A DNA stretch of 64,000 nucleotides from Minisyncoccota bacterium (GTDB lineage: Bacteria; Patescibacteriota; Minisyncoccia; Minisyncoccales; CG1-02-41-26). This document shows positions 2,547 to 30,046 of this stretch, piece by piece; the stretch's first letter is position 1; every line of letters starts with the position of its first letter. A model generated the notes under the pieces. That model was not told where the DNA came from, searched no databases, and saw only the letters and a list, made by a program, of their open reading frames with translations. Made by a program: the position numbers and the translations under genes. Where the stretch lies: positions 2,525 through 66,524 of the forward strand of contig JAQULB010000004.1 of assembly GCA_028718785.1 (NCBI GenBank). Reading direction: 5' to 3'.

Positions 2547-2556
2547 ATTGTTTTTG

Positions 2557-2570
2557 TGCACGATCGTGCA
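2557..2570. promoter_or_regulatory. Perfect 14-bp palindrome TGCACGATCGTGCA (operator-like)
   Basis: Read directly from the sequence, about 10 nt upstream of the 2546 start. The same TGCAC-N4-GTGCA architecture recurs at 8997-9010 and 12236-12249. Confidence 0.5.
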
Positions 2571-2602
2571 ATTTCTTTATGACCTTTGAATTTTAGTAAT
2601 TC

Positions 2603-2694
2603 CACCCAAACTACCCAAACTACCCAATTTTCAAGTCAAAGCTACCATGGGGACCGACTTTAATTTATGGTAGTTTTGGTAGTTATGGTAGTAA
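2603..2694. repeat. Inverted iteron arrays (candidate replication origin of the element)
   Basis: The left array is CACCCAAACTACCCAAACTACCCAA (2603-2627), with CTACCATGG in the centre. The right array is ATGGTAGTTTTGGTAGTTATGGTAGTAA (2667-2694), the reverse-complement unit. The arrays overlap the 3' end of the primase-helicase gene. Confidence 0.55.
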
Positions 2695-4122
2695 TTTCTC
2701 CTGTTCAGCCAATTCTGCATAATACTTCTCCTCACTTGTCAAGCTTTCTTCCTTTTTTTGCCTTAAAGCCAAATTCACTATCCCCACAAAACTATCCTCA
2801 TCTTGCTTTCTTTTACCTACGATATATCCCTCACTTCTTACCATCTGTCCTACTTGTTTTATTGTCAGAAGCCTTAATCTCTTTTCTCTTAACCATAAAT
2901 TGAAGTTAACGGTAAAATCTTGCAATTTTGTATTCTCTCCAACTACATCTTCATAATTCTCCTCAATAAACTTTGGCAAGGGGTTAGACCTTTCTTCATA
3001 CCGTCGTTCTCTTTCATCGTAATTACCTTCGTTTGTGAATTGGTGTGTTTCGTATAACTTTTTTAAGGTATTAACGCACTTCAAACAAAGATTTTCATAT
3101 TCTTGCTCTGAAACTACTAAAATTACATCTGACTTTATTTCGAACCTATTTGGGAAGTCTGTAATTGCCCATCTCCTATAAAATCCCATAGACCTATCTG
3201 GCGTTGTTGGCAAGCTATTCGTTGATATAATAATTGTAGTGATAGTCGGTGCTGAAAAAGAATTTTTACCCTTAAACTCATATTCTATCTTGTCTTCTCC
3301 AGTCAACATCTTTAGGGTGTTTGTGTTTGAAAGGTCTCCATAACCAACCTCTCCTGCGAAAGCCACTAATTTTTTATAAATAGCACTCTTGGCGAAGTCG
3401 TTTGAAGATAACTTTTTTAGTTCTACTGCCACGCAATTTTCACTGCCTACCAATTTCTCTATAACCTTTAAGAAAGTTCCTTTGCCGTTGCTTCCACCTC
3501 CTGTAAGTGCTATCACTCGTTGCATAAACAAATCATCTGTCAGTGAATAAGCCAAATATTCATATAAGCTTTGAACATAACTTTCATCTTGCACTCCATC
3601 TCTCACTGCCCACTGGTGCAAAAGTTTATCTAATTCTGGTGCTTCTTCCGATTCTCCTAATTTATGTGGTATTGGATTAGTTAAAAAGTATTCATGGCTT
3701 GCCTCTACCTTCTCCCCTGTCTTTGGATTTACTAAAGTATTTAAGAATTGTATCCAACCTTTTGGTTTTTCTTTTGGTGATTGTTCCCTGCCAACCTGTT
3801 TTAACGCAGTCAATATTTCTGCTTTAGTTCTATTGGTAATAGTATCTATTCCCATCTCCTTTCTAATTCCGTTCAATAAATCAACTTCATCTTTCATCTC
3901 ATAGCAGTATCTTTCAGCGTTCCAGAACCAGAATATTCCCTCTGGTGAATAAAATAGTGGTTGTTCTTTTATGAACGCTTCTGCTTGCCCTATTTTGGTA
4001 AAGACCTTGCCTCTTTTTTCTTCTTTTATTTCTTTATTTTTTCCTATAATATCCTCTAATTCTTTTTCGTTTCCCTCAAATCCAGTTTCTTTTGGGCTAC
4101 TATCTAAATTATTTTCTGACAT
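2683..4122 (-). CDS. Phage/plasmid primase-helicase, P4 / D5 family
   Basis: 479 aa. The Walker A is ALTGGGSNGKGTF, followed by a typical D5/P4 C-terminal helicase region (ISTNSLP, YRRW). Confidence 0.85.
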   Translation of the reverse strand: MSENNLDSSPKETGFEGNEKELEDIIGKNKEIKEEKRGKVFTKIGQAEAFIKEQPLFYSPEGIFWFWNAERYCYEMKDEVDLLNGIRKEMGIDTITNRTKAEILTALKQVGREQSPKEKPKGWIQFLNTLVNPKTGEKVEASHEYFLTNPIPHKLGESEEAPELDKLLHQWAVRDGVQDESYVQSLYEYLAYSLTDDLFMQRVIALTGGGSNGKGTFLKVIEKLVGSENCVAVELKKLSSNDFAKSAIYKKLVAFAGEVGYGDLSNTNTLKMLTGEDKIEYEFKGKNSFSAPTITTIIISTNSLPTTPDRSMGFYRRWAITDFPNRFEIKSDVILVVSEQEYENLCLKCVNTLKKLYETHQFTNEGNYDERERRYEERSNPLPKFIEENYEDVVGENTKLQDFTVNFNLWLREKRLRLLTIKQVGQMVRSEGYIVGKRKQDEDSFVGIVNLALRQKKEESLTSEEKYYAELAEQEKLLP

Positions 4123-4227
4123 AATCTTCTGCAGGCTGTTAGGTACAGATGATAGGCAGAAGATTAATTAAGCTATTATCTGCCACCTAGCAAACCCTTA
4201 AATTATTCTTTTTTTATTGACCTTTAT

Positions 4228-4821
4228 TTATTGCAACGATAGCACTGCATCTTTGAAACTTAATCCTCTCACTTTCATCACGAAATCGATTGCGTCCCCC
4301 GTTGCCCCACAAGCGTGGCAATAATAGAAATTGCCCTTTATGTTTAACGATGGGTGCTTTTCTTGTCCTCCAGCGTGAAAGGGGCACCTAACCACATAAC
4401 CTCTTACTTGCCCATACATCTGCTCGTAAATTTGCTTTAATAACCGACTTTTCGCCACTTGCATCTGGTAGTCTGTTAATTTACCCTCAGTTTCTTTTGG
4501 TGGCTCAATAAAGCAAGCTATTCTTTGGGCTTCCCTGTTTATTTCTTTTATCGGCTGTAAATCGAACACTGATATAGTCTTTGCCTTAAACCACCTATCG
4601 AACTCGTTCTGGTACTGGTATGCTTTATGCTTTTCTAATTTTCTTTTGGCTTCTTTGACTAATTGCTCTTTTCGTTCAGTTAATTCTTCCAACCTTTCAA
4701 CAAAATATTCTTTCGCTTCGGGGAATATTTCTAACCACTGCTTTTCAGATAACCACTCTCTTCGGCTTTCATATTGTTTTTCAAGTTCCAGTGTTATTGA
4801 TTCGGTTTGGTCAAAATTCAT
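4228..4821 (-). CDS. CHC2 (DnaG-type) zinc-finger protein, primase-associated
   Basis: The C-terminal sequence CPFHAGGQEKHPSLNIKGNFYYCHACGATGDAIDF is the CHC2 zinc-finger signature. Confidence 0.75.
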   Translation of the reverse strand: MNFDQTESITLELEKQYESRREWLSEKQWLEIFPEAKEYFVERLEELTERKEQLVKEAKRKLEKHKAYQYQNEFDRWFKAKTISVFDLQPIKEINREAQRIACFIEPPKETEGKLTDYQMQVAKSRLLKQIYEQMYGQVRGYVVRCPFHAGGQEKHPSLNIKGNFYYCHACGATGDAIDFVMKVRGLSFKDAVLSLQ

Positions 4822-4825
4822 AATT

Positions 4826-5038
4826 TTATTTGTTTAGATGCGGGTATCTTTCAATAAACCTCATGTCTTCTCCCTCGTCCAATACCCATTTAAGAATATC
4901 GGCCTTTCCTTCTAACCACCTTAAAAATTCTTCATTTTCGCCCTCAGCATTCCTGTGGTGAACAATATGGTCGGAAGTAGAAAATACAGCATCATCGTAA
5001 TTTTTTAACATTTCCCTAATTTCTTGTTCTGTTTTCAT
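4826..5038 (-). CDS. Hypothetical protein of the integrated element
   Basis: 70-aa ORF, 4 nt from the downstream gene. No motif recognised. Confidence 0.35.
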   Translation of the reverse strand: MKTEQEIREMLKNYDDAVFSTSDHIVHHRNAEGENEEFLRWLEGKADILKWVLDEGEDMRFIERYPHLNK

Positions 5039-5081
5039 ATTTGTTCTGTTTTTTTATTTTATGACTTTTTGAACATAGGTT

Positions 5082-5279
5082 TTACAGGTCGCCAGTTTCT
5101 TTTCTGCGTTTTTGAATTTGTTTATACTCCGCCTCTGTCATTGGGCGATAAGTTAACTCAACAAGCCGAAGAAGGGCAACTCCTTTTTCGTAAGCTTCAT
5201 TTCGGCTAATGGTTTTTCCGAAATGGCTTTCGTAAATCTTCTGAAATTTTTCAATTTGTGTGTTGGATAGCATAAACAA
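5082..5279 (-). CDS. Hypothetical protein of the integrated element
   Basis: 65-aa ORF, the first gene of the minus-strand block. No motif recognised. Confidence 0.35.
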   Translation of the reverse strand: MFMLSNTQIEKFQKIYESHFGKTISRNEAYEKGVALLRLVELTYRPMTEAEYKQIQKRRKETGDL

Positions 5280-5281
5280 AA

Positions 5282-5356
5282 ATCCGTTAAAAGCAGGGCG
5301 GGCTCCATTTGGCGATTTCGCCTACCCGGTTTTTAACGGATCTTTTTCGCCAAATG
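5282..5356. repeat. GC-rich element with interleaved inverted repeats (A-B-A'-B')
   Basis: ATCCGTTAAAA (5282-5292) pairs with TTTTAACGGAT (5330-5340). CCATTTGGCGA (5305-5315) pairs with TCGCCAAATGG (5346-5356). Confidence 0.4.
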
Positions 5357-5367
5357 GATTTGCTGTC

Positions 5368-5403
5368 AAATAAAAATAGCCAGAACATATTGTTGTTCTG
5401 GCT
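5368..5403 (-). terminator. Intrinsic-terminator-like hairpin (T-run on the minus strand)
   Basis: AGCCAGAACA-tattgt-TGTTCTGGCT is preceded on the plus strand by an A-run, which is a T-run on the minus strand. Confidence 0.45.
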
Positions 5404-5629
5404 ATTTAAAAACCCAAAAAGAAAGAATTACAACAACAATATGTTGGTAAAACCTCTTTTTGGGTCTTGGTCTTTCTGTGGCATTAGTTTATCCAAATAG
5501 AAAGATTTTGACCGATAAATTTTAATTTATTTTTATATTACAGTAACTTGAAAACTGGGTCAAGTCACGCAATTAAGCCCCGGAATCCACTAAAATCTCC
5601 TCATTTTTACCATCTTTTTAGTTTCTAAC

Positions 5630-5658
5630 TTCCAAAAATCAAAGATTTATGCTATATT
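5630..5658 (+). promoter_or_regulatory. Candidate sigma70-type promoter (TTCCAA-17-TATATT)
   Basis: The -35 is TTCCAA at 5630-5635, the spacer is 17 nt, and the -10 is TATATT at 5653-5658. It lies upstream of the GC-rich leader and the 5845 ORF. Confidence 0.35.
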
Positions 5659-5695
5659 AAAAATAATAATTGAATTGCCTAAACTCGTTTTTTAT

Positions 5696-5815
5696 CGGGC
5701 ATGGCATAAAACCACATGCATACTGAACCAGTCGTTCAGCTCCATGCATGTGGTCTACGCTCGAAAGGGCGTGGGAGGACGCAAGTTCTCGGCTAGCGGC
5801 GGGTTTTGTGTTTTC
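5696..5815 (+). ncRNA. Candidate structured RNA / 5' leader (family unassigned)
   Basis: A GC-rich island in AT-rich DNA. It has a long hairpin, CCACATGCAT..CTGAAC-cagtc-GTTCAG..ATGCATGTGG (5712-5753). A second hairpin, CGCTC-GAAA-GGGCG (5758-5771), has a GNRA loop and a U-G wobble only on the plus strand. Confidence 0.3.
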
Positions 5816-5844
5816 CATTAACAAATAAACTATAATTAAAATAT

Positions 5845-6462
5845 ATGCCTGAACAAGGAATACAAAAAAACCCAATAGAGAAGAAAAAGAAAACTAATGG
5901 TTGTTTAGTGGTTTTTCTTGTTATTGTCGGGGTAATTATTATCGGTGTGCTTTCTAGTAGTGGTAGTAAGAATAAAAGTGCGGAAACATCAAAGAAAGAA
6001 ATGCCAGCCGTCTCCTCTTCAATGAATCAAGTTTCAAGTGCGCCAACTTCGCAGGAAACATCAGAAAAAAAAGCTCAAACTGAAGCAAAAATGAAACAAA
6101 TAGAGAAAGAAATGGAATACAGAACAAAGATAATAAAAATTTGCCAAACAATTTTAGTGGCACAACAGGGCCTGCGTGATTTTCTACTGAAAAATCCTTT
6201 CCCCCCTTCTTGGACAGATAGTGAAACAGCAATGGTGGCAGATTGGATAAACACTATGAGAGAGAGTTATGAGGATACAAAATATATTCAAGCCCCAGAG
6301 GAATTAAAGGAACAACACCAAACTTTTTTAAGGGGAATGAAATACTACAATGACGGCATAGAGGAGCTTGTAAAAGGGTTAGCTCTTTCCGACTCCTCTT
6401 TGATTGAGCAAGCGACAAAGACGATGAATAAGGGAGCGGATCTTTTAAGTGAGGTTCGTTGA
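5845..6462 (+). CDS. Hypothetical membrane-anchored protein
   Basis: 205 aa with an N-terminal TM helix (CLVVFLVIVGVIIIGVL), then a low-complexity linker and a helical domain. Confidence 0.5.
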   Translation: MPEQGIQKNPIEKKKKTNGCLVVFLVIVGVIIIGVLSSSGSKNKSAETSKKEMPAVSSSMNQVSSAPTSQETSEKKAQTEAKMKQIEKEMEYRTKIIKICQTILVAQQGLRDFLLKNPFPPSWTDSETAMVADWINTMRESYEDTKYIQAPEELKEQHQTFLRGMKYYNDGIEELVKGLALSDSSLIEQATKTMNKGADLLSEVR

Positions 6463-6482
6463 TATATCGCTAATTAAAAAAT

Positions 6483-7010
6483 ATGACAAATAATAACACG
6501 GAAAAAATAATCGGCTGGTATGAAATAGCTACTGACCATTTCTTTTGCGTTGAGTGCTTTCTTAAATTAAAAAATTTAAATAAAAAAAGCTATGAAGCAA
6601 TGGTTGATTTTCTCAAGAATCGAATCCAAAAGAAAAAAGACTACAAACTAACATATAAACCAATACAAAAAGAGGATTTAGGGGAGGATGTTTATACTTG
6701 TGATAAATGCGGAAGGGATTATGGAAGAGGGAAAGAGCCAAATAAAGAAGAGGAAAAAGTAGTTAAAAGAGAAATCCAAGAAACAAAATGCACCTGTAGT
6801 GCTTGTGGAAATGTTTGGTTTTATGGCAAAGAAGATGTCGCAAAAGAAAGGGAGAAAATAAGGGACAACGCAGGTAGGGCTATGGCTTGTTGCGGTGGTT
6901 GTTTATTACCGATGTTGCTTACTCCGCACAGAGAACCTATAGACCTTGATAAATGTCCAAAGTGTAATTCGAAAGCAATAACAAAAGAAACAGTTGTTCA
7001 CAATGTCTAA
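6483..7010 (+). CDS. Hypothetical multi-zinc-ribbon protein
   Basis: 175 aa with four CxxC-type pairs (CVEC, CDKCG, CTCSACG, CPKCN). Confidence 0.5.
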   Translation: MTNNNTEKIIGWYEIATDHFFCVECFLKLKNLNKKSYEAMVDFLKNRIQKKKDYKLTYKPIQKEDLGEDVYTCDKCGRDYGRGKEPNKEEEKVVKREIQETKCTCSACGNVWFYGKEDVAKEREKIRDNAGRAMACCGGCLLPMLLTPHREPIDLDKCPKCNSKAITKETVVHNV

Positions 7011-7221
7011 AATAATAATTCTTTTAATAAGGATATATCAAAAAACACTTTCTCATCTTTTAGTTTATTTAGGAGTAAGGTGCCGTTTTTACCCAACTTG
7101 TTCAGAATATGCAATTTTGTCTCTCGAAAAATATGGCTTACGAATTGGCATCAAAAAAATATATCATAGATTATACAGATGTCGCCCTGATAATTTTGAA
7201 AGTTGTATAGATTTTCCATAA
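7003..7221 (+). CDS. yidD: Membrane protein insertion efficiency factor YidD
   Basis: The sequence MSKIIILLIRIYQKTLS...CRFYPTCSEYAILSLEKYG...RLYRCRPDN is the YidD signature. The start was moved to the ATG at 7003. Confidence 0.85.
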   Translation: MSKIIILLIRIYQKTLSHLLVYLGVRCRFYPTCSEYAILSLEKYGLRIGIKKIYHRLYRCRPDNFESCIDFP

Positions 7222-7268
7222 ATAATATTACAAAGGTTTAATAAATAAAAGTAATTATCTAAAATTAT

Positions 7269-7382
7269 ATGTCAGAAAAAAGTGTCAAAGAAGCAAAAAG
7301 CTATCCAATAGCCGGGACTTTAATCATAATTATTATGGTTATAGTAGCTATTTATATTGGCAGCTATTTCGGTAGTCGATAA
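7269..7382 (+). CDS. Possible 37-aa single-pass membrane peptide
   Basis: Hand-found ORF MSEKSVKEAKSYPIAGTLIIIIMVIVAIYIGSYFGSR, below the ORF-track cutoff. Confidence 0.3.
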   Translation: MSEKSVKEAKSYPIAGTLIIIIMVIVAIYIGSYFGSR

Positions 7383-7470
7383 TTAAGGATACAAACATAA
7401 AAGCTGTTATTGCTTATATAAACAAAGGTCAGAGTCATTAAAAATTAAATTAAAATTACAATTAAAAAAT

Positions 7471-8982
7471 ATGACAAAAATATTTCAGAAAACATATTTT
7501 TATGTTTCGCTTATTAGTTGTTTAGCTCTTTTGTTTTGTCTTGCGCCAAAGATTACCGAGGCCGCTTCTTTGAACTTCGCGCTCAATCCCTATCAAGGTG
7601 AAATTAGACCGGGCGGAGCAATTTTAATTGGAACAAACCCAATTTTTGATACCAATGAAGCCACTATTGAGGCCTGGATTAACCCGAAAAGCTATCCAAC
7701 GGGTATTGGCGAAGATGAAGGGCGAACTATTTTATGGAATGGCGATGGCACAGGAGGACACGATCCTTATTGGATTTTGTTAAATACCAGTGGGCGGTTA
7801 GAGGCCAGAGTTGACTATGACTCGCCTTACCAACAGCATATTTTCGTTTCCTCTGACCCCATAGAGCTGAACACTTGGCACCACTTTGCTTTAGTTATTG
7901 GGGCAGTTTCAACGGACTTATACATTGATGGCGTAAAACAGCCCGGAACATTCCTAAATGGCGGTCCAGCTTGCAAAGGCACAAACTATTTAGCTGTGGG
8001 GCGAAGTATGTGGCACTGGAATCCTTATGAGGGTTTAATAGACGAAATGAGAATTTGGAAAGTAGCCAGAACAGTAACGGAGATTCAAAATGATAGATGG
8101 ACTGGAAGCGTATCAGGCGATAATCCAGATTTAGTTGCTTATTGGGACTATGAGCAGGGCGCTAACTCAAGCGTGCTTTACGATTTAACGCCAAACCATC
8201 TTAATGGAGGGATTCAGGGTTGCACTTGGACTAATGAAAGCGCGCCTGCTCCTCCTTGCCAGGCAGATGTCTGGTCGTGTGGTGAGTGGAATGCTTGCTC
8301 TATTTCTGGCACTCAAACAAGAACCTGCGCTAAAACTTTTGAATGTTCAACCGTAGACACCCCCTCCCCAGCAACCTCGCAGAGCTGTGTTTATACCCCA
8401 CCAACCTGTACCTCTTGGATTTATTCGGATTGGTCTGCTTGTCAGCCAAATGGCACTCAAACAAGAAGCATCGCAAGCTCTACTCCTAATGGCTGTGCTG
8501 GCGGTAATCCAGTTTTAACTCAAAATTGTATTTATACACCATCACCATGTACTGCCGATGTTTGGTCGTGCGGTGAATGGGGATTTTGCTTTGTAAATGG
8601 AAAACAAAGCCGAAATTGCACTAAAACATTTGATTGCTTAACTGCAAATACACCCTCACCAGCTACTTCGCAAAAATGTACTTATCAGAAACCCACATGT
8701 ACTGCAGACACATGGACTTGCGGTGCATGGGGAGAATGCTCGCTTTCTGGGATACAGAATCGTAGTTGCACTAAAACCTTTGACTGCCCGGATATTCAAA
8801 CAGCGCCACCGACAACCGAACAATATTGTAAGGCCCCGAATAAGCCCACAAATCAATCTTCTTCAAGTGATGAGGCTACGATAGCGCAATTAAAATCACA
8901 AATCGCAGACCTTCAGAGACAAATAATGATTTTGCTTACTCAACTAATTCAGGTATTGCAACAACAGTTAGGCCACCGATAA
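7471..8982 (+). CDS. Secreted LamG/concanavalin-A-like lectin-domain protein with four Cys/Trp-rich thrombospondin-type-1-like repeats
   Basis: It has a signal peptide and a LamG-type region (EAWINPKSYP..DEMRIWKVARTVTEIQ). Four ~48-aa repeats follow the pattern C..D.W.CG.W..C...G.Q.R.C.KTF.C......P, then a C-terminal coiled-coil. Confidence 0.75.
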   Translation: MTKIFQKTYFYVSLISCLALLFCLAPKITEAASLNFALNPYQGEIRPGGAILIGTNPIFDTNEATIEAWINPKSYPTGIGEDEGRTILWNGDGTGGHDPYWILLNTSGRLEARVDYDSPYQQHIFVSSDPIELNTWHHFALVIGAVSTDLYIDGVKQPGTFLNGGPACKGTNYLAVGRSMWHWNPYEGLIDEMRIWKVARTVTEIQNDRWTGSVSGDNPDLVAYWDYEQGANSSVLYDLTPNHLNGGIQGCTWTNESAPAPPCQADVWSCGEWNACSISGTQTRTCAKTFECSTVDTPSPATSQSCVYTPPTCTSWIYSDWSACQPNGTQTRSIASSTPNGCAGGNPVLTQNCIYTPSPCTADVWSCGEWGFCFVNGKQSRNCTKTFDCLTANTPSPATSQKCTYQKPTCTADTWTCGAWGECSLSGIQNRSCTKTFDCPDIQTAPPTTEQYCKAPNKPTNQSSSSDEATIAQLKSQIADLQRQIMILLTQLIQVLQQQLGHR

Positions 8983-8992
8983 GAACCAATAA

Positions 8993-9060
8993 AAATTGCA
9001 CAGGTGTGCAAAAATAGAACTTGGCGTTTTTAGAAATTAACCCGAAGTTGTTTTTACCTG
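8993..9060. repeat. Degenerate repeat copy A, containing the TGCAC-AGGT-GTGCA palindrome at 8997-9010
   Basis: It shares three blocks with copy B (12232-12300): TTGCACA-N2-TGTGCA, GCGTTTTT-N-GAAATT and GTTGTTTT. More TGCAC motifs occur at 9083-9204. Confidence 0.5.
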
Positions 9061-9249
9061 AAAAGTATCCCTTTGGCGTTGCACAAATAGGTCATTTAAT
9101 GATCCAAAAAGCTTATTTTTATTGAACAAATTGGAACTAAAAATGCACAATGGTGTAAAATAACTCAATAAATAAACTTTGCACAATTCGTGCACCTTTG
9201 CACCTTTTTGTATTAGTAATCCTTGAATTTCTACCGGGTAGCCTCTACA

Positions 9250-9389
9250 ATGCCCCTTTTTGCCCCAAAATGCCCGCTCACGCCACGATTCAGAGGCATA
9301 GGGAGCTTAAGTAGTAGGTAGATACTACTTTGGACAAACGGTTGCCGAACCCCTTGCCTGTAAGCATAGGAAAAGGCAAAAAAGGGCAT
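9250..9389. other. GC-enriched structured island (candidate ncRNA or palindromic-element remnant)
   Basis: The 15-bp inverted repeat ATGCCCCTTTTTGCC (9250-9264) / GGCAAAAAAGGGCAT (9375-9389) encloses the hairpin AAGTAGTA-ggtaga-TACTACTT. It also encloses a half-copy of the GGCAACC palindrome, ACGGTTGCCG at 9338-9347. Confidence 0.3.
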
Positions 9390-9530
9390 TTTATTTGCCA
9401 CTTGCGGCTCGGTTTTATTACAATGTACTTTAATTCTGCCCCCTGCACAGGAATTGAATCCTTCTTTACAATTAGCTTTTTAGCGCTAAAATCAAATTAA
9501 AACAGAGGGATAAGTTAAAGTTTTGAGATT

Positions 9531-10175
9531 ATGCCCAATCGATTCCTTGAAAAAAATAAAACCTATTTTGAGCTCATCGGGGTTATGGCAGCAATTGGAG
9601 CGATTTTTTTGACTATTCCAACGCCCGAAAATGATAAGGCTCAAAATGCCCTGATGAACATCCAGTTAATTTGGCTAATAATAATTTCTGTCTCTCTTTT
9701 GTTGCTTTTTTATAAATTTTTTAGATTCTTTCTTCTTGTAGAAGATTTGGCAGAAAAAAATGGCTTACATTTTTATAGTTCATTGGCAGTGATACCATTT
9801 TTTATGGGTGGTTTAATTCTTTATCATTTATGGAGGTACATTTTTATAATATATGGTAGTAATTACAAAGGTTCTATTTTACAGTATTTGTTGGGGATAG
9901 TATTTTCCATATATATAGCTTTTACCATTTTTGTTTCTAAAAAATTTATCCAAGATTATTTACACAAAAAGATCGGCCCATATCTTTTTAAAATTTTTTC
10001 CTATTTGTTGATTTCTAGTGCAGTAGTTTCTTTTTTATTCTATTTACTAAATTTAAGATTCCAAATTGATCGGTGGTTTTCTTCTTTTCTTTTAACCTTC
10101 TTGATAGCATATTGTATAGTTGTGTTTTATAGTTATTGGTATATTAAAAATAATCCTCATATTAAGAAACTTTGA
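9531..10175 (+). CDS. Hypothetical polytopic membrane protein
   Basis: 214 aa with about six hydrophobic segments. No family recognised. Confidence 0.5.
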   Translation: MPNRFLEKNKTYFELIGVMAAIGAIFLTIPTPENDKAQNALMNIQLIWLIIISVSLLLLFYKFFRFFLLVEDLAEKNGLHFYSSLAVIPFFMGGLILYHLWRYIFIIYGSNYKGSILQYLLGIVFSIYIAFTIFVSKKFIQDYLHKKIGPYLFKIFSYLLISSAVVSFLFYLLNLRFQIDRWFSSFLLTFLIAYCIVVFYSYWYIKNNPHIKKL

Positions 10176-10347
10176 CTAAAAAAGTTCCGTGTCGTAAATT
10201 GCTCGCATGTTGAACAATGTTCTAACCCCGATATAACAGTAAGGGCGATATTTCGCAGAAGCGGAATTTGATAAAAGGGCCACATTGGAATTAAATAATA
10301 CTAACAGGGAATAATTTATAAATACCTATTACGAGAGTCGCTTAATG

Positions 10348-10377
10348 TTTTTTGGGTTGAAGTAACCCAAAAAAATT
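10348..10377. terminator. Bidirectional intrinsic terminator
   Basis: TTTTTTGGGTT-gaagt-AACCCAAAAAAA. Confidence 0.5.
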
Positions 10378-10401
10378 CATTTGGCTATTTCTACTGAAAG
10401 T

Positions 10402-10962
10402 ATGCGGAAACCGAATACTCAAGATTTACAAAACTTTACAAAAGAATATTTTAAAAAGAACCCCCCTATTGTTAAGTGGAAAAAGATAGACTGCAATGGG
10501 TTAGCAGATACAGAAAATAATATAATCTATTTAAACCCTGAAAATTCTGAAAAAGAATTTGGTTGTCAGGTGACTGAGGGTTCCTATAAACCAAAAACTA
10601 GAATAAGATTTAAAGATGGTGAACAATATTTTGCTGTCCTTCTCCACGAAATAGCAGAGTTTAAGTTCTACGGTAAGATAAAACCTCCTAAATGTTTTAA
10701 GGAAATCAAGAATAAAATAATAAAAAAACTTCGAAGAGAGGCCGTTGAAAAATCAAAAAAATTAAAAACAGAATATAAGGAGCCTACTTTGGATGATGTG
10801 GCTTACTTGGCACAAGATTGCTTTGAAGACCCTGGAGATCACTGTGAATTTCGTGCTTGGCTTTTAGGAAGACTAAATATCGACCACATTAAAGTGGAAG
10901 ATTGGGCAGTTCAAAAATTTAAAAAGAGAAGAAAAGACATAGCTATTCTTCTATCGGATTAA
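10402..10962 (+). CDS. Hypothetical protein (LLHEIAEF, a possibly degenerate zincin-like motif)
   Basis: From the ORF track. I prefer the ATG at 10402, because the track start at 10381 is a TTG directly abutting the terminator. Confidence 0.45.
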   Translation: MRKPNTQDLQNFTKEYFKKNPPIVKWKKIDCNGLADTENNIIYLNPENSEKEFGCQVTEGSYKPKTRIRFKDGEQYFAVLLHEIAEFKFYGKIKPPKCFKEIKNKIIKKLRREAVEKSKKLKTEYKEPTLDDVAYLAQDCFEDPGDHCEFRAWLLGRLNIDHIKVEDWAVQKFKKRRKDIAILLSD

Positions 10963-10984
10963 AAAATACATTGAAATTCAGACA

Positions 10985-11047
10985 GTCACTCCAAGCCACG
11001 CTTTTTGGCGTTTTTAAAAAAGTTCGGATTCCATAGACATGCACAAT
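10985..11047. repeat. Degenerate repeat copy C
   Basis: It contains GTCACT, CTTTTTGGCGTTTTTAAAAAAGTT and ATGCACAA. It shares GTCACT with copy B and TTGGCGTTTTTA with copy A. Confidence 0.4.
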
Positions 11048-11048
11048 A

Positions 11049-11750
11049 TCATACAGTGGGATTACCTGACCCAGAATCTGGATCTTCAGGATAGAATCTA
11101 CTTTTTTGGACTATATGAAATTGTTTAGCTTTTTCCCTCATTTTCTCAACTTCAATCTTCGGCATTTGTTTAAATGTTTTATTCTTAGCATCAATTGTTG
11201 CCACCTTTGTTTCTCCACCAACTCCACTTCCTCCTTGGCGTGCAGTTTCTTCAATACATAATACAGCCATCTCGGCTACTCCGTTCATTTTCACTTCTGT
11301 TTCATATACGCTAGTTAAGATATAATCAGCAATATAAGGAACTCCGATACATTCATAGCCAACCATGCATTTTCTTGGAACAAAATTATCGTTACTTTCC
11401 AATCTATAAATTTCCGCAGTTTCCTCCTTTGAATAACCAACTAAAATAAGAGATAGCCTGGGTCTTTTTTCTGGAGATAGATGTTCAAAAAAATCATTAA
11501 ATTTCGCTTTACCTTTTTGTCTCATTTCTTCGGCTAAATGCAAAACTCCTTGGCTATAATTTAACTCTCCTTTTATTTGGTCGAGAAAATATGTTGCTAA
11601 TCCCCCATCTCCCGATATACCAACAGCATTACTACTTCCAATAGAAAAAATTTTAATCACCTTGTCGTTGCTAGTTAGCTCACCCGTGGCCTGGCTATCA
11701 GAAGCAATAACAATTCCATCTTTAGTTTTTAGACCTATAACGAGTGTCAT
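11049..11750 (-). CDS. Proteasome beta-subunit-like Ntn peptidase (stand-alone, Anbu/BPH/HslV-like)
   Basis: The N-terminus is M-TLVIGLKTKDGIVIASDSQAT. Thr1 follows Met directly, with Asp17 and Lys32/33 at proteasome-type positions. The GSGVGG region is also typical of the T1 family. Confidence 0.8.
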   Translation of the reverse strand: MTLVIGLKTKDGIVIASDSQATGELTSNDKVIKIFSIGSSNAVGISGDGGLATYFLDQIKGELNYSQGVLHLAEEMRQKGKAKFNDFFEHLSPEKRPRLSLILVGYSKEETAEIYRLESNDNFVPRKCMVGYECIGVPYIADYILTSVYETEVKMNGVAEMAVLCIEETARQGGSGVGGETKVATIDAKNKTFKQMPKIEVEKMREKAKQFHIVQKSRFYPEDPDSGSGNPTV

Positions 11751-12104
11751 TTAATTGAGGTTTACCTTTACTTCCAAGGGACTAATTGGCTCCTTGGGAT
11801 TATATTGAGGGACATATTGTTTATACATCTGTTTTTCTACAGCTTTTCTTTTTTCATCCCCTTTAATTGGAGCATATCTAAAAGAAAATTCTCCCTGCTT
11901 TAAGAAACTATCTTCTTTAGATAGGAGTAAGCTCAATTCATTTTTTATGTCAGTAGCGCTCCCAATGAAAATAACATAAAACTTACCATCGGATTCTTTT
12001 TTGGATATACGAAAAACACCTTCAACTATACCATTTAATCTATCCATCCCCTCAGGGGTTAACGGTACGAGGGTGGACCATACTAAATTTATATCGTAAT
12101 TCAT
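11751..12104 (-). CDS. GIY-YIG-like domain protein (Arg of the canonical motif not evident)
   Basis: Motifs are GVFRISKK..GKFYVIFIGSATDIKNEL (GIY...YIG-like) and EKQMYKQYVPQYNP (E...P.YN). The stop abuts the peptidase ATG. I use the ATG at 12104 with AAGGA upstream, as the track start is a TTG. Confidence 0.5.
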   Translation of the reverse strand: MNYDINLVWSTLVPLTPEGMDRLNGIVEGVFRISKKESDGKFYVIFIGSATDIKNELSLLLSKEDSFLKQGEFSFRYAPIKGDEKRKAVEKQMYKQYVPQYNPKEPISPLEVKVNLN

Positions 12105-12231
12105 AGGTTCCTTAAAATATATTATGATTATACACTTTACCAAGAATAAAATCTACATCAAGCTTTCATAAAAATAAATTATGTTCCCCGATAAAATACA
12201 GGCGCTTTATAAGGAGTGGTTGAGGTTTGAC

Positions 12232-12300
12232 TTTTTGCACAAATGTGCACAGAAGTCACTTTTTAGCGTTTTTGGAAATTTAGTTGCGGTTGTTTTCGCC
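12232..12300. repeat. Degenerate repeat copy B, containing the TGCAC-AAAT-GTGCA palindrome at 12236-12249
   Basis: See copy A. It lies about 130 bp upstream of the GIY-YIG-like/peptidase operon. Confidence 0.5.
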
Positions 12301-12514
12301 CGTGGAGTAGTATTTTTACCTACTCTCTTTTTTTTTACCGATTATTAAAGAGAAACAAACTTTTATTTATAATACTCTGAGTAAGTTGGCAGTTTTATTG
12401 AAAATTCAAACGGTATCAATTTTACGCTATTATCGCCCACACAATGTCGGGTAGTGTCCCAACTATGCCGATTGATAAGCTCATATTTTAAATTTATTGC
12501 TTATAAAAATTAAT

Positions 12515-19989: not shown

Positions 19990-22900
19990 TTATTCCTGTT
20001 CGTTGTTGGTAAATTGGCAGATATCTTTGAAATCGCAGAACTGGCAGTGAAAACCCGGGGTGGCCTTAAAGTTGCTTTTATATATTTTTTCAATTGTTTG
20101 GATAATTTCATCTTTTAATTTTTGTTTTTCTTGCTCTGTGCCCAAAAAGCTTATTTTTTCTCCGCTTTCTAAATAATAGTAAGCCAATTCAACTGGATTT
20201 AATTTTAGGTTTTCTTCTGTTGCTATTTGATAAAGCAAAAGCTGGGTCTTATCATCCTTTTCTAATTTATCTTTCTTTTTTCCAGTTTTGTAATCGATAA
20301 GACACACGCCCCCGCCCGCATCGCTACGCGAGCAAGCACTCGCTTGCGAAGCGTTGCGGGCAGGCCCATTAACTTCATCAATGCGGTCAATTTTTCCAAT
20401 CAAGGTGTATTTACCCGCTTTTAAGCGAAAACTTACCTCTAAAGCCAGTTTATCGTTTATTTTTAAAATTTTAGGAGGATTTTTTACAAAATCATCATAA
20501 AAGTTTTTTAAAATCTCTTTGCCTAATTTTTTGTATTCCTCTTTTTGGGCTTTGCTTTCATACCACTCTCCTATCCAATTCTTTTCATAAATCCCCGCCA
20601 AATCCTCAAAACCCGCGGCAACCCGGTTGCCGTGGGTTTCAAAGGCAAAGAGGGATTCTTGGGTTTTGTCGGCTGTTTGGAAATAACTACGCAAGAAATC
20701 ATCTAATGTTTTATGCAAGGTTTTACCAAACGAGAAACTGGCCTTTCCTTTAATGGGTATTTTTAAGATGTGGGCTAATTTGTATTGATAGGGGCATTTA
20801 TTAAAAGCTGTTAATTGGGTGTATGAAAAATGGTCGGGAATAGACCATTTTTCAATATTTAACTCTATGGGTTCTTTGGCTGGCTCGTCTATTTGCTGGG
20901 CTTGTTTTCCTTTGCTTTTTGGCAAGGGTTTTTGGGCCAAGCCAAGCTCCACTAAGAAAAGCGAGGGTTTTTTGCTGGTTTTACCCCCGTAATTTGAGGC
21001 CGAGGTTAAAAATAAACCCTGCTTGGCTCTGGTCATGGCCACATAAAAAAGCCGGCGTTCTTCTTGCAAATGAATATCCCCCTCCCCGGCTTGTTCTTTA
21101 ACAAGCGGTTCTGGAATTTCAATGGCATCTTTTCTTTCAATTGAAGGAAACCGCTTATCAACCATACTAACCACGAAAACATATTTAAATTCTAAGCCCT
21201 TAGCTGAGTGAACAGTCATTATTTTGATTGTGTCAGGGCCTTGGTCAATATCAAACTCCATTTTACCTTGCTCTCCGCTTTCAATTTCCAAAGTTAATTG
21301 GGCTAAAAAATTTTTTAGCGATGGATCAATTGACGCTTCTTTAAAACCCTGTATTTTTTTGTAAAACTGACTCAAAAAATCAATTTCCAGCAATTTATCT
21401 TTTTCAACCAAATATTTTAAAAAGCCCGAGTTATTTAAAAAAGCTACAAAAATTTCCCCAACTGATTTGGTTTTTGCCATTTCAGTATGGCGGGTTATTA
21501 AAGAAAGTAAAAAGGTAATTTTATTTAAAGTTTCGTGAGTTATGCCTTTTACAACTGAAATCTTAGACAATGTTTCATAAACCGACTGAGAGCGCTTGTG
21601 GCTTTCTTGAGTGATAAGCATTATGTCTTTAATATCTATACTTAAAAATGGTAAAGACAAAACTCGATAAAGCGCTAAACTTTCGTGGTAATTATCTAAT
21701 AGTTTTAAATAAGAAATAACATCTAAAATAATTGGCTTTTGAAAAAGCCCCCGCGAGGCCAAAAATTGATATTGTAATCCAGCCCTGTCTAAAGCCAAAG
21801 CAAACGGCACAGCTGAATCATTGGCTCTTACTAAAATTGCAAAATCGCTAAGCTTGGTGTCTGGTTCTTTTTCTAAAATTAAAACAATAGTGTTAGCTGT
21901 CTCTTTGGCTTCTTCGTTAAGCGATTTAAAATGCAAATATTTAACAAAACTTGGCTGTGATTTTTGAGCTTGAAGTTTTTTGTCTATTTTGGAAATAAAC
22001 TCCAATCTATTGGGATTGTTGGCTTGGATAAATTTGTATGACAAATCCAAAACCTCTTGCCCAGACCTATAATTTTTAACTAAACAAATTTCTTTGGCTT
22101 GTGGAAAATCCCGCTTAAACTGTTTTATATTGCTAACTGATGCGCCCCTCCATTTATAGATTGAATTATGAACAACAATTCCATTAGCAAAAAAATTATG
22201 AGTTTTATCAACCTCTAAATCATAAACTGCAATATTTTTATTTTCCTCTTTAATCTCGACAATCTCATCGTAAATAATTTCTCGACCTTGCCTAACAGGT
22301 AAATAATGGCCTAAAACTAAATTTTTAGCTGGTATAACTATTGCGGGGTAACTTCTGGGTCGATCGCTATCCTTCAAAGGATGTTGCAACGCTATATTAA
22401 ATTTTGTTTCCACAATTCCTTCTGTTAAATTTTCGAGTTGCTTGGCTATTTTGCCAATTTCTTGAAAATCCACATTTTCAATTCTAAGCTTCATACCGTT
22501 TTTGGCCTTTAAAAGATTGTATTTTGCTTTTTTTAGCTTCTCTATCGTTGCTTTATCTGAAGTTTCTAAACTTAGAACATGCTTTATAGCAGGGTTAAGT
22601 AAAAATTGTTTTTCTTTTTTTCTAATAATATCTCTGCTACGATAATTTCGGTGGCACATTCTTATATTAATTTTAATTCTCACCTTATTACCCCTATTAA
22701 CGGCATCAAGGGCAAAATGATGAGCGCTTAAATCAATATTTAAATCTTGGGATAGCCGAGCAATATTTTTATCCACTGTTAAATCTCGATAAAGTTTAGA
22801 CAGTAATTCATCTTTAATAACTATATTCTTGCGAACCTGAAAACAGCTGGTTGGTATGCCATACTTTAACGACCATAATGTTTCGTGATATCGTGCTTCT

Positions 22901-24778: not shown

Positions 24779-25390
24779 TTAAGCAATCATTTCTTTTATT
24801 TTCATTCTAACAATTTTTTCGCTTCTTTCTTGCTCGTCAAGCTTTGAGGTGATAAATTTTATTTTTCTTTTTGTTTCAGGAATAATAACATACTCTAAAG
24901 CATTAACGCGCCTTCTGGTTTTTTCAATTTCATAAGATAACAACCGACAAGAATGTTCGTTGCCAGCCAAATCTATCATTAACTCTAAAGCGTCCCAAAA
25001 ACTATTTAAACTTTCCCCCATTCCCAAAGGCGAAGAAAAATCAGAGTAACATTTAACATCTCCTCCAATAAAGCGCTGAAATTTTGGTATCCAAACGCTC
25101 ATTATATTTTGAGTTTTAACATCTATGCTTATTTTTGAGGAAGGCAAAGAAAACATTTCTTCCACCTCCCCAGAAAACATATTTGATGTTGATAAAACAA
25201 ATTTTTTTGAAGCAAAAGAAAGCTTTTCCTCTAAAAGGTTTCTTTGGGACTTTGTTTGCCTGATAATTTCCATAAACTTTTTCATTAAGCCGTCCCGTTT
25301 TTCTTTTAAAAGTTTATAGCCCCTTTGAGCGGTTTTTGCCTGGCGCTTTAATTTTAAAAGCTCCATTCTTGTTGCTTTGATATTTTCCAT
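24779..25390 (-). CDS. atpD: A/V-type ATP synthase subunit D
   Basis: MENIKATRMELLKLKRQAKTAQRGYKLLKEKRD is the canonical subunit D N-terminus. It is the last gene of the operon. Confidence 0.9.
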   Translation of the reverse strand: MENIKATRMELLKLKRQAKTAQRGYKLLKEKRDGLMKKFMEIIRQTKSQRNLLEEKLSFASKKFVLSTSNMFSGEVEEMFSLPSSKISIDVKTQNIMSVWIPKFQRFIGGDVKCYSDFSSPLGMGESLNSFWDALELMIDLAGNEHSCRLLSYEIEKTRRRVNALEYVIIPETKRKIKFITSKLDEQERSEKIVRMKIKEMIA

Positions 25391-25527
25391 GTTAGAAATT
25401 TTTAATTGAACGGCGAATTTATGAGTCGTGAAATTTAAAAGTTCTTACACCCCGTTAAATAATTTTAAATTAGTAAATTTAAAATTAAAATTTGTACTCA
25501 AATTTTATTTAACAGGGTAAATTCGTA

Positions 25528-26940
25528 CTAAACTCGCTCTTCGCCCTTCGGGCTTGAACTCATTAAGTACTTATTTATGTGTTCCTCTTTCAATCTCTTC
25601 ATTTCTTCTTTTGGCAATATGCCAATTAGTTCCCAGCCCAAATCTAATGTTTGCTGGATTGTTCTGTCTTCTGTGTAGTTTTGATTAACAAACTTTTGTT
25701 CAAAATCATCAGCAAACTTTAAGTATTTTTTATCCACATCAGTTAAAGCTGACTCCCCTAAAATTAAAGCTAACTCTCTTACTTCTCTGCCTCGAGCGTA
25801 AAAAGCAAACAATTGGTTTAAAACTCCAGAATGGTCTTCTCTGGTTTTTTTATCGCCAATGCCCTTGTCTTTTAACCGAGATAAAGACGGTAAAACATCA
25901 ATGGGAGGATAAATATTCTTTTTGTGCAAGTCCCGAGAAAGCAAAATTTGCCCCTCGGTGATATACCCAGATAAATCAGGAATTGGGTGGGTGATATCAT
26001 CTTCTGGCATTGTTAAAATGGGAATTTGGGTGATAGAACCCTTTTTATTTTTTATTCTGCCCGCTCTTTCATAAATAGTGGCCAAGTCAGTATATAAGTA
26101 TCCCGGATATCCCCTTCTTCCCGGCACTTCTTTTCGGGCTGCTGACACTTCTCTTAAGGCCTCGCAGTAATTTGTCATATCAGTTAAAACCACCAAAACC
26201 TGCATATCTTTTTCAAAAGCCAAAAACTCAGCGGCTGTTAAAGCGATCCTGGGCAGTGTAATTCTTTCCACCACTGGATCGCTAGCTAGGTTAATAAACA
26301 CCACCGCTTTTTCTAATGCCCCTGTTTTTTTAAACTCATCAATAAAAAATTGGGCTTCTTCAAAAGTAATTCCCATGGCTCCAAAAACCACAGAAAATTT
26401 TTCAACTTCCCCTTTTTCGTTTTTTGTTAAAACCTTGGCTTGCCTGGCAATTTGAGAAGCCACCATAGCATGAGGAAGTCCAGCCGCTGAAAATATTGGC
26501 AGTTTTTGTCCTCTTACTAAAGTATTTAAACCATCAATAGTGGAAATGCCTGTTTGAATAAAATCATTGGGATATTCTCTTGAATAGGGGTTGATTGGAG
26601 AGCCGTTAACATCTAAATATTTTTCAGCTATAATTTCTGGCCCGCCATCTTTTGGTTTGCCGGCGCCATCAAAAATTCGCCCAACCATATCGCTTGACAC
26701 CCCAAGCTTCATTGTTTTAGCTAAAAATTTGGCTTTTGAGCCCTTTAAATTTAATCCTCTAATATCTTCAAACACCTGAATAATAGCTGTGGTTTCGTTT
26801 GCTTCTAAAACCCGGCCTCTTTTTATTTGACCATCCTGCATTTCAATTTCCACCATTTCCTCATACTTTATATTTTCCACTCCACCAACCACCACCAATG
26901 GCCCAGCTGCCTCTGTAATTGTTTTGTATGTCTTTAACAT
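25528..26940 (-). CDS. atpB: A/V-type ATP synthase subunit B
   Basis: 470 aa, the non-catalytic B-type sequence ([29 protein letters not shown]). Confidence 0.95.
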
Positions 26941-26949
26941 ATATTTTAT

Positions 26950-28704
26950 TTAAACAATTTGTTCTATTTCTTTATTAAGCAAAACAAATTGCTCTATTTC
27001 TTCTTCTTTAATAAGCTTCATTCTTGAGACCTTTTCCTTTAAACTATTTGTTAAAATATCTTTGGCTAATTTTCCCTGACTGATAGCTTGTTCTCCTTTA
27101 ATAAAAATATCAACAATTGTTTTCACCATTAAGTATTGCTTTTTTAAAGAAGTAAAAGAATCCACATCAGTAAAAGCGTTTTGATGTAAAAAGTCCTCCC
27201 TGATAATGCGAGCAATTTCAAGTAAAAACTGGTCTTTTTGAGACAAGGCCTCAATGCCAACCAACCGAACAATTTCTTGAAGCTCGGCTTCTTTTTGCAA
27301 AATAGCCATTGCTTTTTTTCTAAATTCAGTAAAGTTTTCTCCGCCTTGCTTGTCAAAAAATTCTTTTAAATTGTCTTCGTATAAAGAATAGCTGTTGAGC
27401 CAATTAATAGCTGGAAAATGTCGTTTATAAGCTAACGAGGCATCTAAGGCCCAAAAGACCTTTGTAACCCTTAAAGTATTTTGGGTTACTGGCTCTGATA
27501 AATCCCCACCCGGAGGAGAAACCGCTCCCACAACTGTTAAAAACCCCTCTCTTTTGTCTTGCCCCAAACATTGCGTGTAGCCAGCTCTTTCATAAAAGGC
27601 CGCTGTTCGAGAGCCAAGATATGCTGGGTAGCCCTCGTCCCCGGGCATTTCTTCCAATCTTCCGGAAATTTCTCTTAACGCCTCTGCCCACCTTGAAGTG
27701 GAATCAGCTAATAAAACCACCGAGTATCCCATATCGCGAAAATATTCAGCAATGGTTATGCCTGTGTAAACCGATGCCTCTCGAGCAGCCACAGGCATAT
27801 TTGAAGTATTGGCCACCAAAACTGTTCTTTCCATTAAGGGTCGGCCGGTTTTGGGGTCGTTTAATTCAGGAAACTCCATTAACAAATCAGTCATTTCGTT
27901 TCCCCTTTCTCCACAGCCCACAAAAATAATTACATCAGCATCAGACCATTTTGCCAATTGGTGCTGAACAACTGTTTTCCCGCTGCCAAACGGCCCTGGC
28001 ACACAGCCCGCCCCGCCTTTGGCAATTGGAAAAAACATATCAATAACCCTTTGTCCTGTTATCAACCCCAAAGATGGGGTTAATTTTTTGGCAATTGGTC
28101 TGGCGTTTCTAATGGGCCATTTATGACTCAAGCATACCTCTATTTTTTTGCCATTTTCATCTTTTATTTCAGCAATTACTTCAGAAACAGTATAGTCCCC
28201 TTTTGGAGCAATTGAAGTTATGGTTCCTTTGTTAAAAACAGGAGGAGCCATAATTTTATGAGTTAAAAGTTCGGTTTCTTTTACCTCGCCCAAAATATCT
28301 CCGGCTTCAATCTCGTCGCCTTGTTTTTTAAGGGGAGTAAGGGTCCATTTTTTGTTTGCGTCTAACGCCAAACACTCAATTCCCCGAGCAATAAACTCGC
28401 CTGATTTTTTGGCTAAATCTTTTAGAGGTCTTTGAATGCCATCGTAAATATTGGAAATTAACCCAGGACCCAATTCAACAGTTAAGGGATTTCCTGTTAA
28501 ATAAACTGGCTCTCCCGGGCCAATGCCTGATGTTTCTTCATATACCTGAATATAAACATCGTTGTTTTTTATCCTAATTACTTCTCCAATGATTTTTTCA
28601 TTGCCCACTTTTACCACCTCATACATTTGAGCTTCAGAGAGTCCGTTGGCCACCACTAAGGGGCCAGCCACCTTAATAATTTTTCCTGTTTTTTCTTCTG
28701 CCAT
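26950..28704 (-). CDS. atpA: A/V-type ATP synthase catalytic subunit A
   Basis: 584 aa with Walker A GPFGSGKTV and GERGNEM. It includes the non-homologous insert typical of A subunits. Confidence 0.95.
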   Translation of the reverse strand: MAEEKTGKIIKVAGPLVVANGLSEAQMYEVVKVGNEKIIGEVIRIKNNDVYIQVYEETSGIGPGEPVYLTGNPLTVELGPGLISNIYDGIQRPLKDLAKKSGEFIARGIECLALDANKKWTLTPLKKQGDEIEAGDILGEVKETELLTHKIMAPPVFNKGTITSIAPKGDYTVSEVIAEIKDENGKKIEVCLSHKWPIRNARPIAKKLTPSLGLITGQRVIDMFFPIAKGGAGCVPGPFGSGKTVVQHQLAKWSDADVIIFVGCGERGNEMTDLLMEFPELNDPKTGRPLMERTVLVANTSNMPVAAREASVYTGITIAEYFRDMGYSVVLLADSTSRWAEALREISGRLEEMPGDEGYPAYLGSRTAAFYERAGYTQCLGQDKREGFLTVVGAVSPPGGDLSEPVTQNTLRVTKVFWALDASLAYKRHFPAINWLNSYSLYEDNLKEFFDKQGGENFTEFRKKAMAILQKEAELQEIVRLVGIEALSQKDQFLLEIARIIREDFLHQNAFTDVDSFTSLKKQYLMVKTIVDIFIKGEQAISQGKLAKDILTNSLKEKVSRMKLIKEEEIEQFVLLNKEIEQIV

Positions 28705-28716
28705 ATATTTAATAAA

Positions 28717-29028: not shown

Positions 29029-29036
29029 AAGTAAAT

Positions 29037-30041: not shown

Positions 30042-30046
30042 ATTCT

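Follow-up and report, generated by a model that had tools for sequence, protein, structure and literature searches.

A recurrent palindrome at one end of the window

The window analyzed here, 64,000 nucleotides (nt) of contig JAQULB010000004.1 (positions 2,525 to 66,524, assembly GCA_028718785.1) from a Minisyncoccota bacterium, begins with an integrated P4-like element and carries, in the element and between the genes next to it, several copies of the palindrome TGCAC-N4-GTGCA. We tentatively read these copies, in their extended form TTGCAC-N4-GTGCA(C/A), as putative operator-type sites for a dimeric DNA-binding protein that would be encoded outside the visible element. The motif is a statistically solid but ordinary type of feature, a short palindrome of regulatory appearance, and as such a further instance of a familiar kind.

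The exact palindrome occurs three times in the window (sites 1 to 3, Table 1) against an expectation of 0.04, and none of 100 dinucleotide shuffles gave three copies. A variant with a 5-nt spacer is the fourth full site, and the flanks extend the motif to 16 bp, TTGCAC-N4/5-GTGCAM. All four sites are found exactly where the original prediction, made from the letters of the window, had placed them, and its estimate of 0.02 chance occurrences was of the right order, three copies being far above expectation. As a look-elsewhere control, all 5-mer arms were combined with spacers of 0 to 10 nt, about 5,600 tests, with the expectation taken from the real 5-mer counts. TGCAC/N4 ranked second among all the palindromes scanned in the whole window (p = 4.3e-8) and first in its first 14 kb (p = 3.9e-7), and after correction for the number of tests the value is still about 2e-4. 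The sole palindrome that outranked it in the window scan is the unrelated CGGCAACCCGGTTGCCG, which also has three copies. The excess of the motif is non-random and above chance.

The distribution of the motif is as uneven as its number is high. No copy is present in the 51-kb core, and all of them lie between 2.5 and 12.3 kb of the window. The word TGCAC/GTGCA is about eight times denser in 1–12.5 kb (27 words) than in 12.5–64 kb (14 words), and 17 of those 27 words fall in the intergenic ~19% of that stretch. TGCAC half-sites were found at 9080, 9144, 9180, 9190/9191, 9199 and 11040; the crowding that had been described at 9083-9204 and at 11040 is essentially right, with the range a few bases off (9080 to 9199, and 11040). 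Half-sites of the form TGCACAA are at 9079 and 11040. Full, degenerate and half sites cluster at 9079-9212, where site 4 and two degenerate copies make up an array (9144-9212), and every full copy, degenerate copy and half-site is intergenic. The arms are identical in all four full sites, with no compensatory changes, while the spacer varies. Such conserved arms around a variable spacer look like a palindrome that is recognized by its sequence, the recognition itself being predicted.

Table 1. Coordinates of the palindrome copies and of the features discussed with them. Positions are those of the window unless a locus is named.
Feature	Position	Strand	Description
Site 1	2556..2571	minus	TTGCAC-GATC-GTGCAC; exact copy TGCACGATCGTGCA at 2557-2570
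Site 2	8996..9011	plus	TTGCAC-AGGT-GTGCAA, fully symmetric 6-N4-6 palindrome; exact copy TGCACAGGTGTGCA at 8997-9010
Site 3	12235..12250	plus	TTGCAC-AAAT-GTGCAC; exact copy TGCACAAATGTGCA at 12236-12249
Site 4 (N5-spacer variant)	9179..9195	plus	TTGCAC-AATTC-GTGCAC; TGCACAATTCGTGCA at 9180-9194
Degenerate copy	9144..9157	plus	TGCACAATGGTGTA; 1 mismatch
Degenerate copy	9199..9212	plus	TGCACCTTTTTGTA; 2 mismatches, abuts site 4
Isolated half-site	9079..9086	plus	TTGCACAA
Isolated half-site	11040..11046	plus	TGCACAA
Unit A	8996..9067	plus	palindrome, then ~55-nt tail paralogous to unit B
Unit B	12235..12309	plus	paralogous to unit A and oriented alike; continues into an intrinsic-terminator-like hairpin with T-run
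Terminator-like hairpin	12304..12337	plus	GAGTAG...CTACTC, then T-run; end of unit B
Large serine recombinase gene	1-1641	minus	551 aa
Small open reading frames of the element		minus	99, 78 and 125 aa (125 aa, DUF5681)
P4-family primase/SF3 helicase gene and CHC2 zinc-finger protein gene	element	minus	
Iteron block	2604-2689		ACTACCMAA iterons of nine bases, 3+3 in inverted arrangement; spans the 3' end of the primase gene
Inverted repeat	5278-5345		26-nt arms, ATCCGTTAAAAGCAGGGCGGGC ... GCCTACCCGGTTTTTAACGGAT; immediately upstream of the first small gene of the element
LOOT RNA	5676-5790	plus	full-length; Rfam RF03000, 77 bits against a gathering score of 46
GTGAACGATCGTTCAC box	L067 5920-5945		between the -35 (TTGACG) and the -10 (TATAC) of recA
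GTGAACGATCGTTCAC box	L076 4913-4938		upstream of recA

Two of the sites head paralogous units

Sites 2 and 3 are related beyond the palindrome. A homologous stretch begins 10–13 nt past it, with 33 of 47 bases identical, and the alignment of the two tails scores 19 against 7.7 ± 2.1 for random window pairs (p ~0.001); the sequences upstream of the two sites are not homologous. Judged by this alignment, they are two copies of a directional ~75-nt unit headed by the palindrome, here called units A and B. Since the homologous tail is shared, the count comes closer to two independent events, plus the N5 variant, than to three. The excess that the original prediction had noted is real, with sites 2 and 3 counting in it as one duplicated unit. 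The terminator-like hairpin at the end of unit B suggests that a short plus-strand transcript may end there. An open reading frame (ORF) of 55 aa at 12181-12348, not called as a gene in the annotation of the locus (L001), spans this hairpin region.

The duplication brings up a reading in which the motif reflects history and not function, with one ~75-nt duplication (sites 2 and 3) and one chance palindrome (site 1) in horizontally acquired DNA that lacks the depletion of TGCA and GCAC seen in the host. Besides the paralogy itself, TGCAC is four-fold under the base-composition expectation in the core, which its depleted sub-words explain, and reaches or exceeds expectation in the first 12.5 kb; the corrected significance drops to ~0.1 when two independent events are counted; and no relative shows conservation of the motif. 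The arms, however, did not follow the rest of the duplicate. Units A and B are ~30% diverged (tails ~70% identical), yet TTGCACA..TGTGCA is identical at 13 of 13 positions, for which the chance at 70% identity is 0.7^13, ~0.01, and the spacer between these arms differs at two of its four positions. Perfect arms in an otherwise diverged duplicate are, on this comparison, a signature of selection on the arms. In addition, sites 1 and 4 share a 16-17-mer and the upstream flank ATAAAKAAA (site 4 on the plus strand, site 1 in its minus-strand reading), the degenerate copies and TGCACAA half-sites cluster, without exception outside genes, and the first 14 kb taken alone still give the p value stated above. 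We regard history alone as an unlikely account of the motif. Duplication and chance in compositionally foreign DNA explain part of the excess, but neither the kept arms nor the flank common to sites 1 and 4.

Position of the sites and strength of their stems

Site 1 has the primase gene (stop at 2683) and the associated iteron block on one side and, on the other, the start codon (ATG, 2546) of the DUF5681 gene (125 aa). It ends 10 nt upstream of this start codon, which has no Shine-Dalgarno sequence, and its hairpin reaches only -6 kcal/mol. Site 2 starts 14 nt past the stop codon of a gene encoding a LamG-domain protein (7471-8982), 520 nt upstream of the next gene, and its hairpin (-6.9 kcal/mol) was flagged as terminator-like on the minus strand. 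Site 3 is included in a longer imperfect inverted repeat, GACTTTTTGCAC AAAT GTGCACAGAAGTC (12229-12257), a 29-nt hairpin of -14.1 kcal/mol. The half-site at 11040 ends 2 nt outside the stop codon of a proteasome-like gene, at the edge of a block homologous to other genomes of the candidate phyla radiation (CPR). The source organism is itself a CPR bacterium, and NCBI lists the identical proteins under 'Candidatus Pacebacteria bacterium'. The neighbors of the sites are, then, the DUF5681 gene, the 3' end of the LamG gene, an unannotated 75-nt unit and a membrane-protein gene. The stems of the palindromes are of about -6 kcal/mol, against -11 to -20 kcal/mol for the clear terminators of the same region.

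Some of these features would suit a hairpin signal acting on RNA or single-stranded DNA, whether a stem-loop for transcript stability, processing or translation, a boxB/nut-like site, or a low-copy relative of the repetitive extragenic palindromic (REP) elements. A fixed stem with a loop of 4 or 5 nt and free loop sequence suits a hairpin better than a dimeric operator. The flank of the 6-bp arms is asymmetric (T...C, as in TTGCAC...GTGCAC) in three of the four sites, and the orientation of the sites follows the local coding or unit strand, minus for site 1 and plus for sites 2–4. The positions of site 1 just before a start codon without Shine-Dalgarno and of site 2 just past a stop codon would fit as well, as would the -14 kcal/mol hairpin of site 3, which is followed by a terminator and is small-RNA-like, and the second exact palindrome family of the genome, CGGCAACCCGGTTGCCG, whose three copies include some beside a Y1 transposase. 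However, the stems are short and weak, and the lack of compensatory variation among the copies implies that structure alone is not the conserved feature. A U-tract is missing from the sense strand of sites 1 and 3, all copies fall within 12 kb where REP elements would be dispersed, the palindrome that flanks the Y1 transposase is a different one, and no Rfam family matched at the sites or elsewhere around them in the region. A hairpin signal is therefore, in our view, possible and somewhat doubtful.

The operator reading is favored by these same properties. Arms that stay the same without compensatory changes argue for base-specific recognition rather than for a mere stem, and sites that are weakly folded, intergenic and partly arrayed point in the same direction. 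The copies would be cis-acting recognition sites read by their sequence, located outside coding sequence, where a gene or a short transcription unit begins, and the reader would be supplied by the host or by a gene in another part of the genome. Site 1 would act at the start of the DUF5681 gene, which opens the distal module of the element; sites 2 and 3 would act at the heads of the two paralogous ~75-nt units, one of them ending in a terminator; and site 4, together with the degenerate copies, would form a small multi-operator-like array. In this scheme we infer three things, namely that a protein binds, which kind of protein it is, and that it represses the adjacent units.

Other known types of signal were considered for the palindrome and rejected. 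A sigma-54 promoter lacks the GG of the -24 element and, in the N4 sites, misses the proper spacing by one; a sigma-70 promoter lacks a -10 element at the right distance; and parS, dif and DnaA boxes have no sequence match. As intrinsic terminators the copies have stems of ~-6 kcal/mol and T-tracts only on the strand without an upstream gene (sites 1, 2 and 4) or, at site 3, on neither strand.

The integrated element

The P4-like element occupies positions 1 to 5.8 kb, with all its genes on the minus strand. It encodes the 551-aa large serine recombinase, the small proteins of Table 1, a P4-family primase/SF3 helicase and a CHC2 zinc-finger protein, and holds two further small ORFs. Its distal module comprises the DUF5681 gene, two small ORFs and the recombinase. 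In L001 (12518-15122), the recombinase gene covers with its 3' end the opening ~35 nt of ychF, and this overlap indicates that the element is inserted at the extreme 5' end of ychF. A full-length LOOT RNA was also observed at the inner edge of the element, just past the early regulatory region.

The presence of a 551-aa serine recombinase and a P4-family primase allows for another role of the palindrome, in recombination (an att- or res-like site for the recombinase) or in replication (a secondary origin or crr-like site for the primase-helicase). Sites 2 and 3 are direct repeats around 3.2 kb, and the res subsites of resolvases typically have variable spacers. On the other side, the left junction of the element, at the start of ychF, has no TGCAC word, and the sites do not share a central dinucleotide (AT, GG and AA), which would block crossover by a serine recombinase. 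The att sites of large serine recombinases are imperfect palindromes of 40–50 bp located at the element ends and sharing a central dinucleotide, and the arms of the motif, of 5–6 bp, fall far short of that length. For replication, the likely primase-binding sites are the ACTACCMAA iterons, whose architecture is kept in the relatives of the element (L003 12066-12165, L007 3450-3545 and L010 12075-12165) with an iteron sequence that changes per element, whereas the palindrome is not conserved there. This iteron block is likely an origin or primase-binding site, by its arrangement, and a role of the palindrome in either process seems very improbable to us.

Evidence that weighs against operator sites

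Several results weigh against the operator reading, and the first of them come from the element itself. Its main regulatory region, upstream of the first gene (5280-5675), has no TGCAC word, and the inverted repeat with 26-nt arms found there is a better candidate than the palindrome for an operator or leader belonging to the element. Among the three related element types reached through protein homologues (L003-L010, primases 65–72% identical), no TGCAC palindrome was found, and no palindrome of any kind precedes the DUF5681 gene, though the iteron block is kept. The primase alone used as query retrieved no relatives in genome or viral contig collections, and searches of viral contigs with the LamG and 193-aa proteins gave no matches.

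The accessory genes give a similar picture. The gene pair encoding a 117-aa protein and a proteasome beta-like subunit (11047-12174) is CPR-wide (L016-L024), and the operon has 82% DNA identity with Staskawiczbacteria loci over a stretch that takes in an extended -10 promoter. The promoter homology stops at 12174, which is 62 nt short of site 3, and the corresponding operons of relatives (76–88% protein identity) have unrelated upstream DNA without the palindrome. The neighbors of the pair change from genome to genome among those examined (it follows rpoC, follows rpsI or lies beside rplK), which suggests that it may move as a cassette. Searches of metagenomes with the palindrome plus the conserved tail GCGTTTTTNGAAA gave five matches of mixed GC content and with no further similarity, which were judged to be chance. 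In 560 kb of CPR DNA around recA (53 low-GC loci) there are zero exact copies of the motif, and none of 51 CPR recA upstream regions has it. By these comparisons the motif is lineage-specific and lies outside the conserved promoters of the neighboring genes. Its absence from related elements and from the upstream regions of relatives leaves it with no phylogenetic footprint, and its absence from the CPR recA regions means that it is not a general CPR SOS box.

The sites themselves raise further objections. The 5-nt spacer of site 4 would be poorly tolerated by a rigid dimer, the T...C asymmetry of the flanks hints at a directional signal, possibly at the RNA level, and neither prediction nor inspection gave a convincing sigma-70 promoter overlapping any site. 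A binding protein is likewise missing from the element. The original prediction had seen no obvious helix-turn-helix (HTH) repressor, and indeed none is recognizable in the element ORFs by Pfam or PHROGs, the small ORFs being without useful matches. It had also pointed to the small ORFs as possible DNA-binding folds, a suggestion that the structure predictions for two of them did not bear out. Single-sequence AlphaFold2 models of the 63-aa ORF (predicted local distance difference test, pLDDT, 86) and of the 78-aa ORF (pLDDT 69) are helical bundles, with no match to a solved fold in the PDB by Foldseek better than E = 2. The 125-aa ORF belongs to the DUF5681 family, with ~989 homologues, no assigned function and no PDB relative. 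Together, the searches of the element ORFs provide no binder candidate.

The proposal that one dimeric protein controls both the element and the accessory genes is thus retained in part. That the palindrome is recognized is plausible; the coupling of the two gene sets is not supported. The regulatory region of the element has no motif and site 1 is not conserved in the related element types, the "9-12 kb accessory block" consists in part of a conserved CPR operon with a conserved promoter that does not take in site 3, site 2 stands just past a stop codon and 520 nt from the next gene, and a mixture of N4 and N5 spacers is awkward for a rigid dimer.

Other features of the window

Between 5.8 and 12.4 kb, the plus strand encodes a DUF7018 protein, a Zn-ribbon protein, a YidD-like protein, the LamG protein, a membrane protein and a 193-aa protein, with a 520-nt non-coding stretch at 9010-9530; the minus strand carries the operon of the 117-aa protein and the proteasome-like subunit. 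Ordinary core genes follow from 12.5 kb on, and among them a cluster for a V/A-type ATPase (subunits D, B, A, C/AC39, c and I) is located at 24779-33079, on the minus strand. In the 520-nt gap, the region 9245-9400 (minus) presents a long imperfect inverted repeat with internal hairpins, which folds with -82 kcal/mol on the minus strand (z = -3.0) and has z = -0.6 on the plus strand. No Rfam family matched this repeat, and by its fold it may be a structured RNA of a type not yet known.

The tetranucleotide ACGT is absent from the first 12.5 kb, where base composition predicts 83 occurrences, and is 13-fold depleted in the rest of the window (26 versus 338); GATC, CATG and TCGA are likewise three- to four-fold low. 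Such depletion suggests a strong pressure to avoid restriction, which would include the mobile element.

The 17-bp palindrome CGGCAACCCGGTTGCCG is present in three exact copies (0.02 expected), at 20616-20632, 35931-35947 and 36162-36178. Two of the copies, each with TA on its flanks, enclose the 5' part of an ORF for an IS200-like Y1 transposase (35416-36147, minus), and one copy is inside an ORF of 1366 aa. The palindrome and the transposase could, by this arrangement, represent a REP-like system with its REP-associated tyrosine transposase (RAYT), or an IS200 hairpin system, in a CPR genome.

Comparison with known systems

Like REP elements with their RAYTs and like the boxB/nut hairpins, the TGCAC motif is short and extragenic, combines a fixed stem with a free loop and stands just before or after genes; the window also has a Y1 transposase with palindromes of its own. 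It differs from these systems in being low-copy and local, with a stem of 5–6 bp and no cognate RAYT or antiterminator, and the Y1_Tnp gene goes with CGGCAACCCGGTTGCCG and not with the TGCAC motif.

The operator arrays of temperate phages and satellites are another parallel. As in the OR/OL operators of lambda and 434, several imperfect palindromes lie within ~70–220 bp (8996-9212), the arms are conserved around a variable center in several copies, and further copies are present in the same mobile or variable region. The differences concern the setting. The sites are not between divergent regulatory genes nor in the early regulatory region of the element beside a repressor gene, no CI/Cro-like gene was found, and related elements do not conserve the motif.

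The most concrete candidate for the reader is a repressor of the LexA family, or a similar HTH repressor, with a shifted specificity, a candidacy that follows from the 5-N4-5 layout and from the single transversion per half-site that separates the motif from a CPR recA box. As a positive control, nearly all the Actinobacterial recA loci of the set show GAAC-N4-GTTC ~100 nt upstream. Among the CPR genomes, the Cheo-type LexA box GTGAACGATCGTTCAC (GTGAAC-GATC-GTTCAC) was found upstream of recA in two, and the other 49 CPR recA upstream regions examined have no Cheo-type box. Mobile elements are often wired to LexA. Against a LexA-type reader, the window has no GAAC-N4-GTTC, no lexA and no recA; neither these genes nor one for a translesion polymerase, nor any other classical SOS gene, adjoins the sites; no lexA or S24 peptidase gene was found in the window or the fetched loci; and tblastn searches of the window and 104 loci with the LexA proteins of E. 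coli and B. subtilis gave no match. Fibrobacter is said to offer a parallel case of a shift in LexA specificity, the box of Fibrobacter succinogenes reportedly being TGCNC-N4-GTGCA.

We consider it quite unlikely, as a specific proposal, that a LexA-like repressor with a TGAAC to TGCAC shift runs a small lineage-specific regulon coupling a signal to the element module and the paralogous units. DNA damage or another signal would then control the recombinase/DUF5681 module of the P4-like element and a pair of paralogous transcription units of ~75–100 nt, which could be small RNAs or encode small hydrophobic peptides. If true, this regulon would count among the first cis-regulatory circuits to be defined for the lineage. 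Next to nothing has been learned so far about how CPR/Patescibacteria, which do not grow on their own, control transcription or how mobile elements are induced in them. With its few copies, the defined 16-bp site is a concrete probe for proteins expressed from the metagenome-assembled genome, and it could reveal how a P4-like integrative element is switched on in CPR cells.

With respect to the sequence, the motif differs from the Cheo-type LexA box (CGAAC-N4-GTTCG) at the specificity-determining position of the arms, which in the CPR LexA box are TGAAC and in the motif TGCAC, and in the 5-nt spacer of site 4. Apart from that spacer the layout is the same, a 14-bp palindrome with 5-bp arms and a 4-bp spacer, and the half-site centers are 9 bp apart, as in Cheo-type LexA boxes and FNR boxes. 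Site 1 (TGCAC-GATC-GTGCA) and the CPR recA box TGAAC-GATC-GTTCA match at 12 of 14 positions, with one transversion per half-site.

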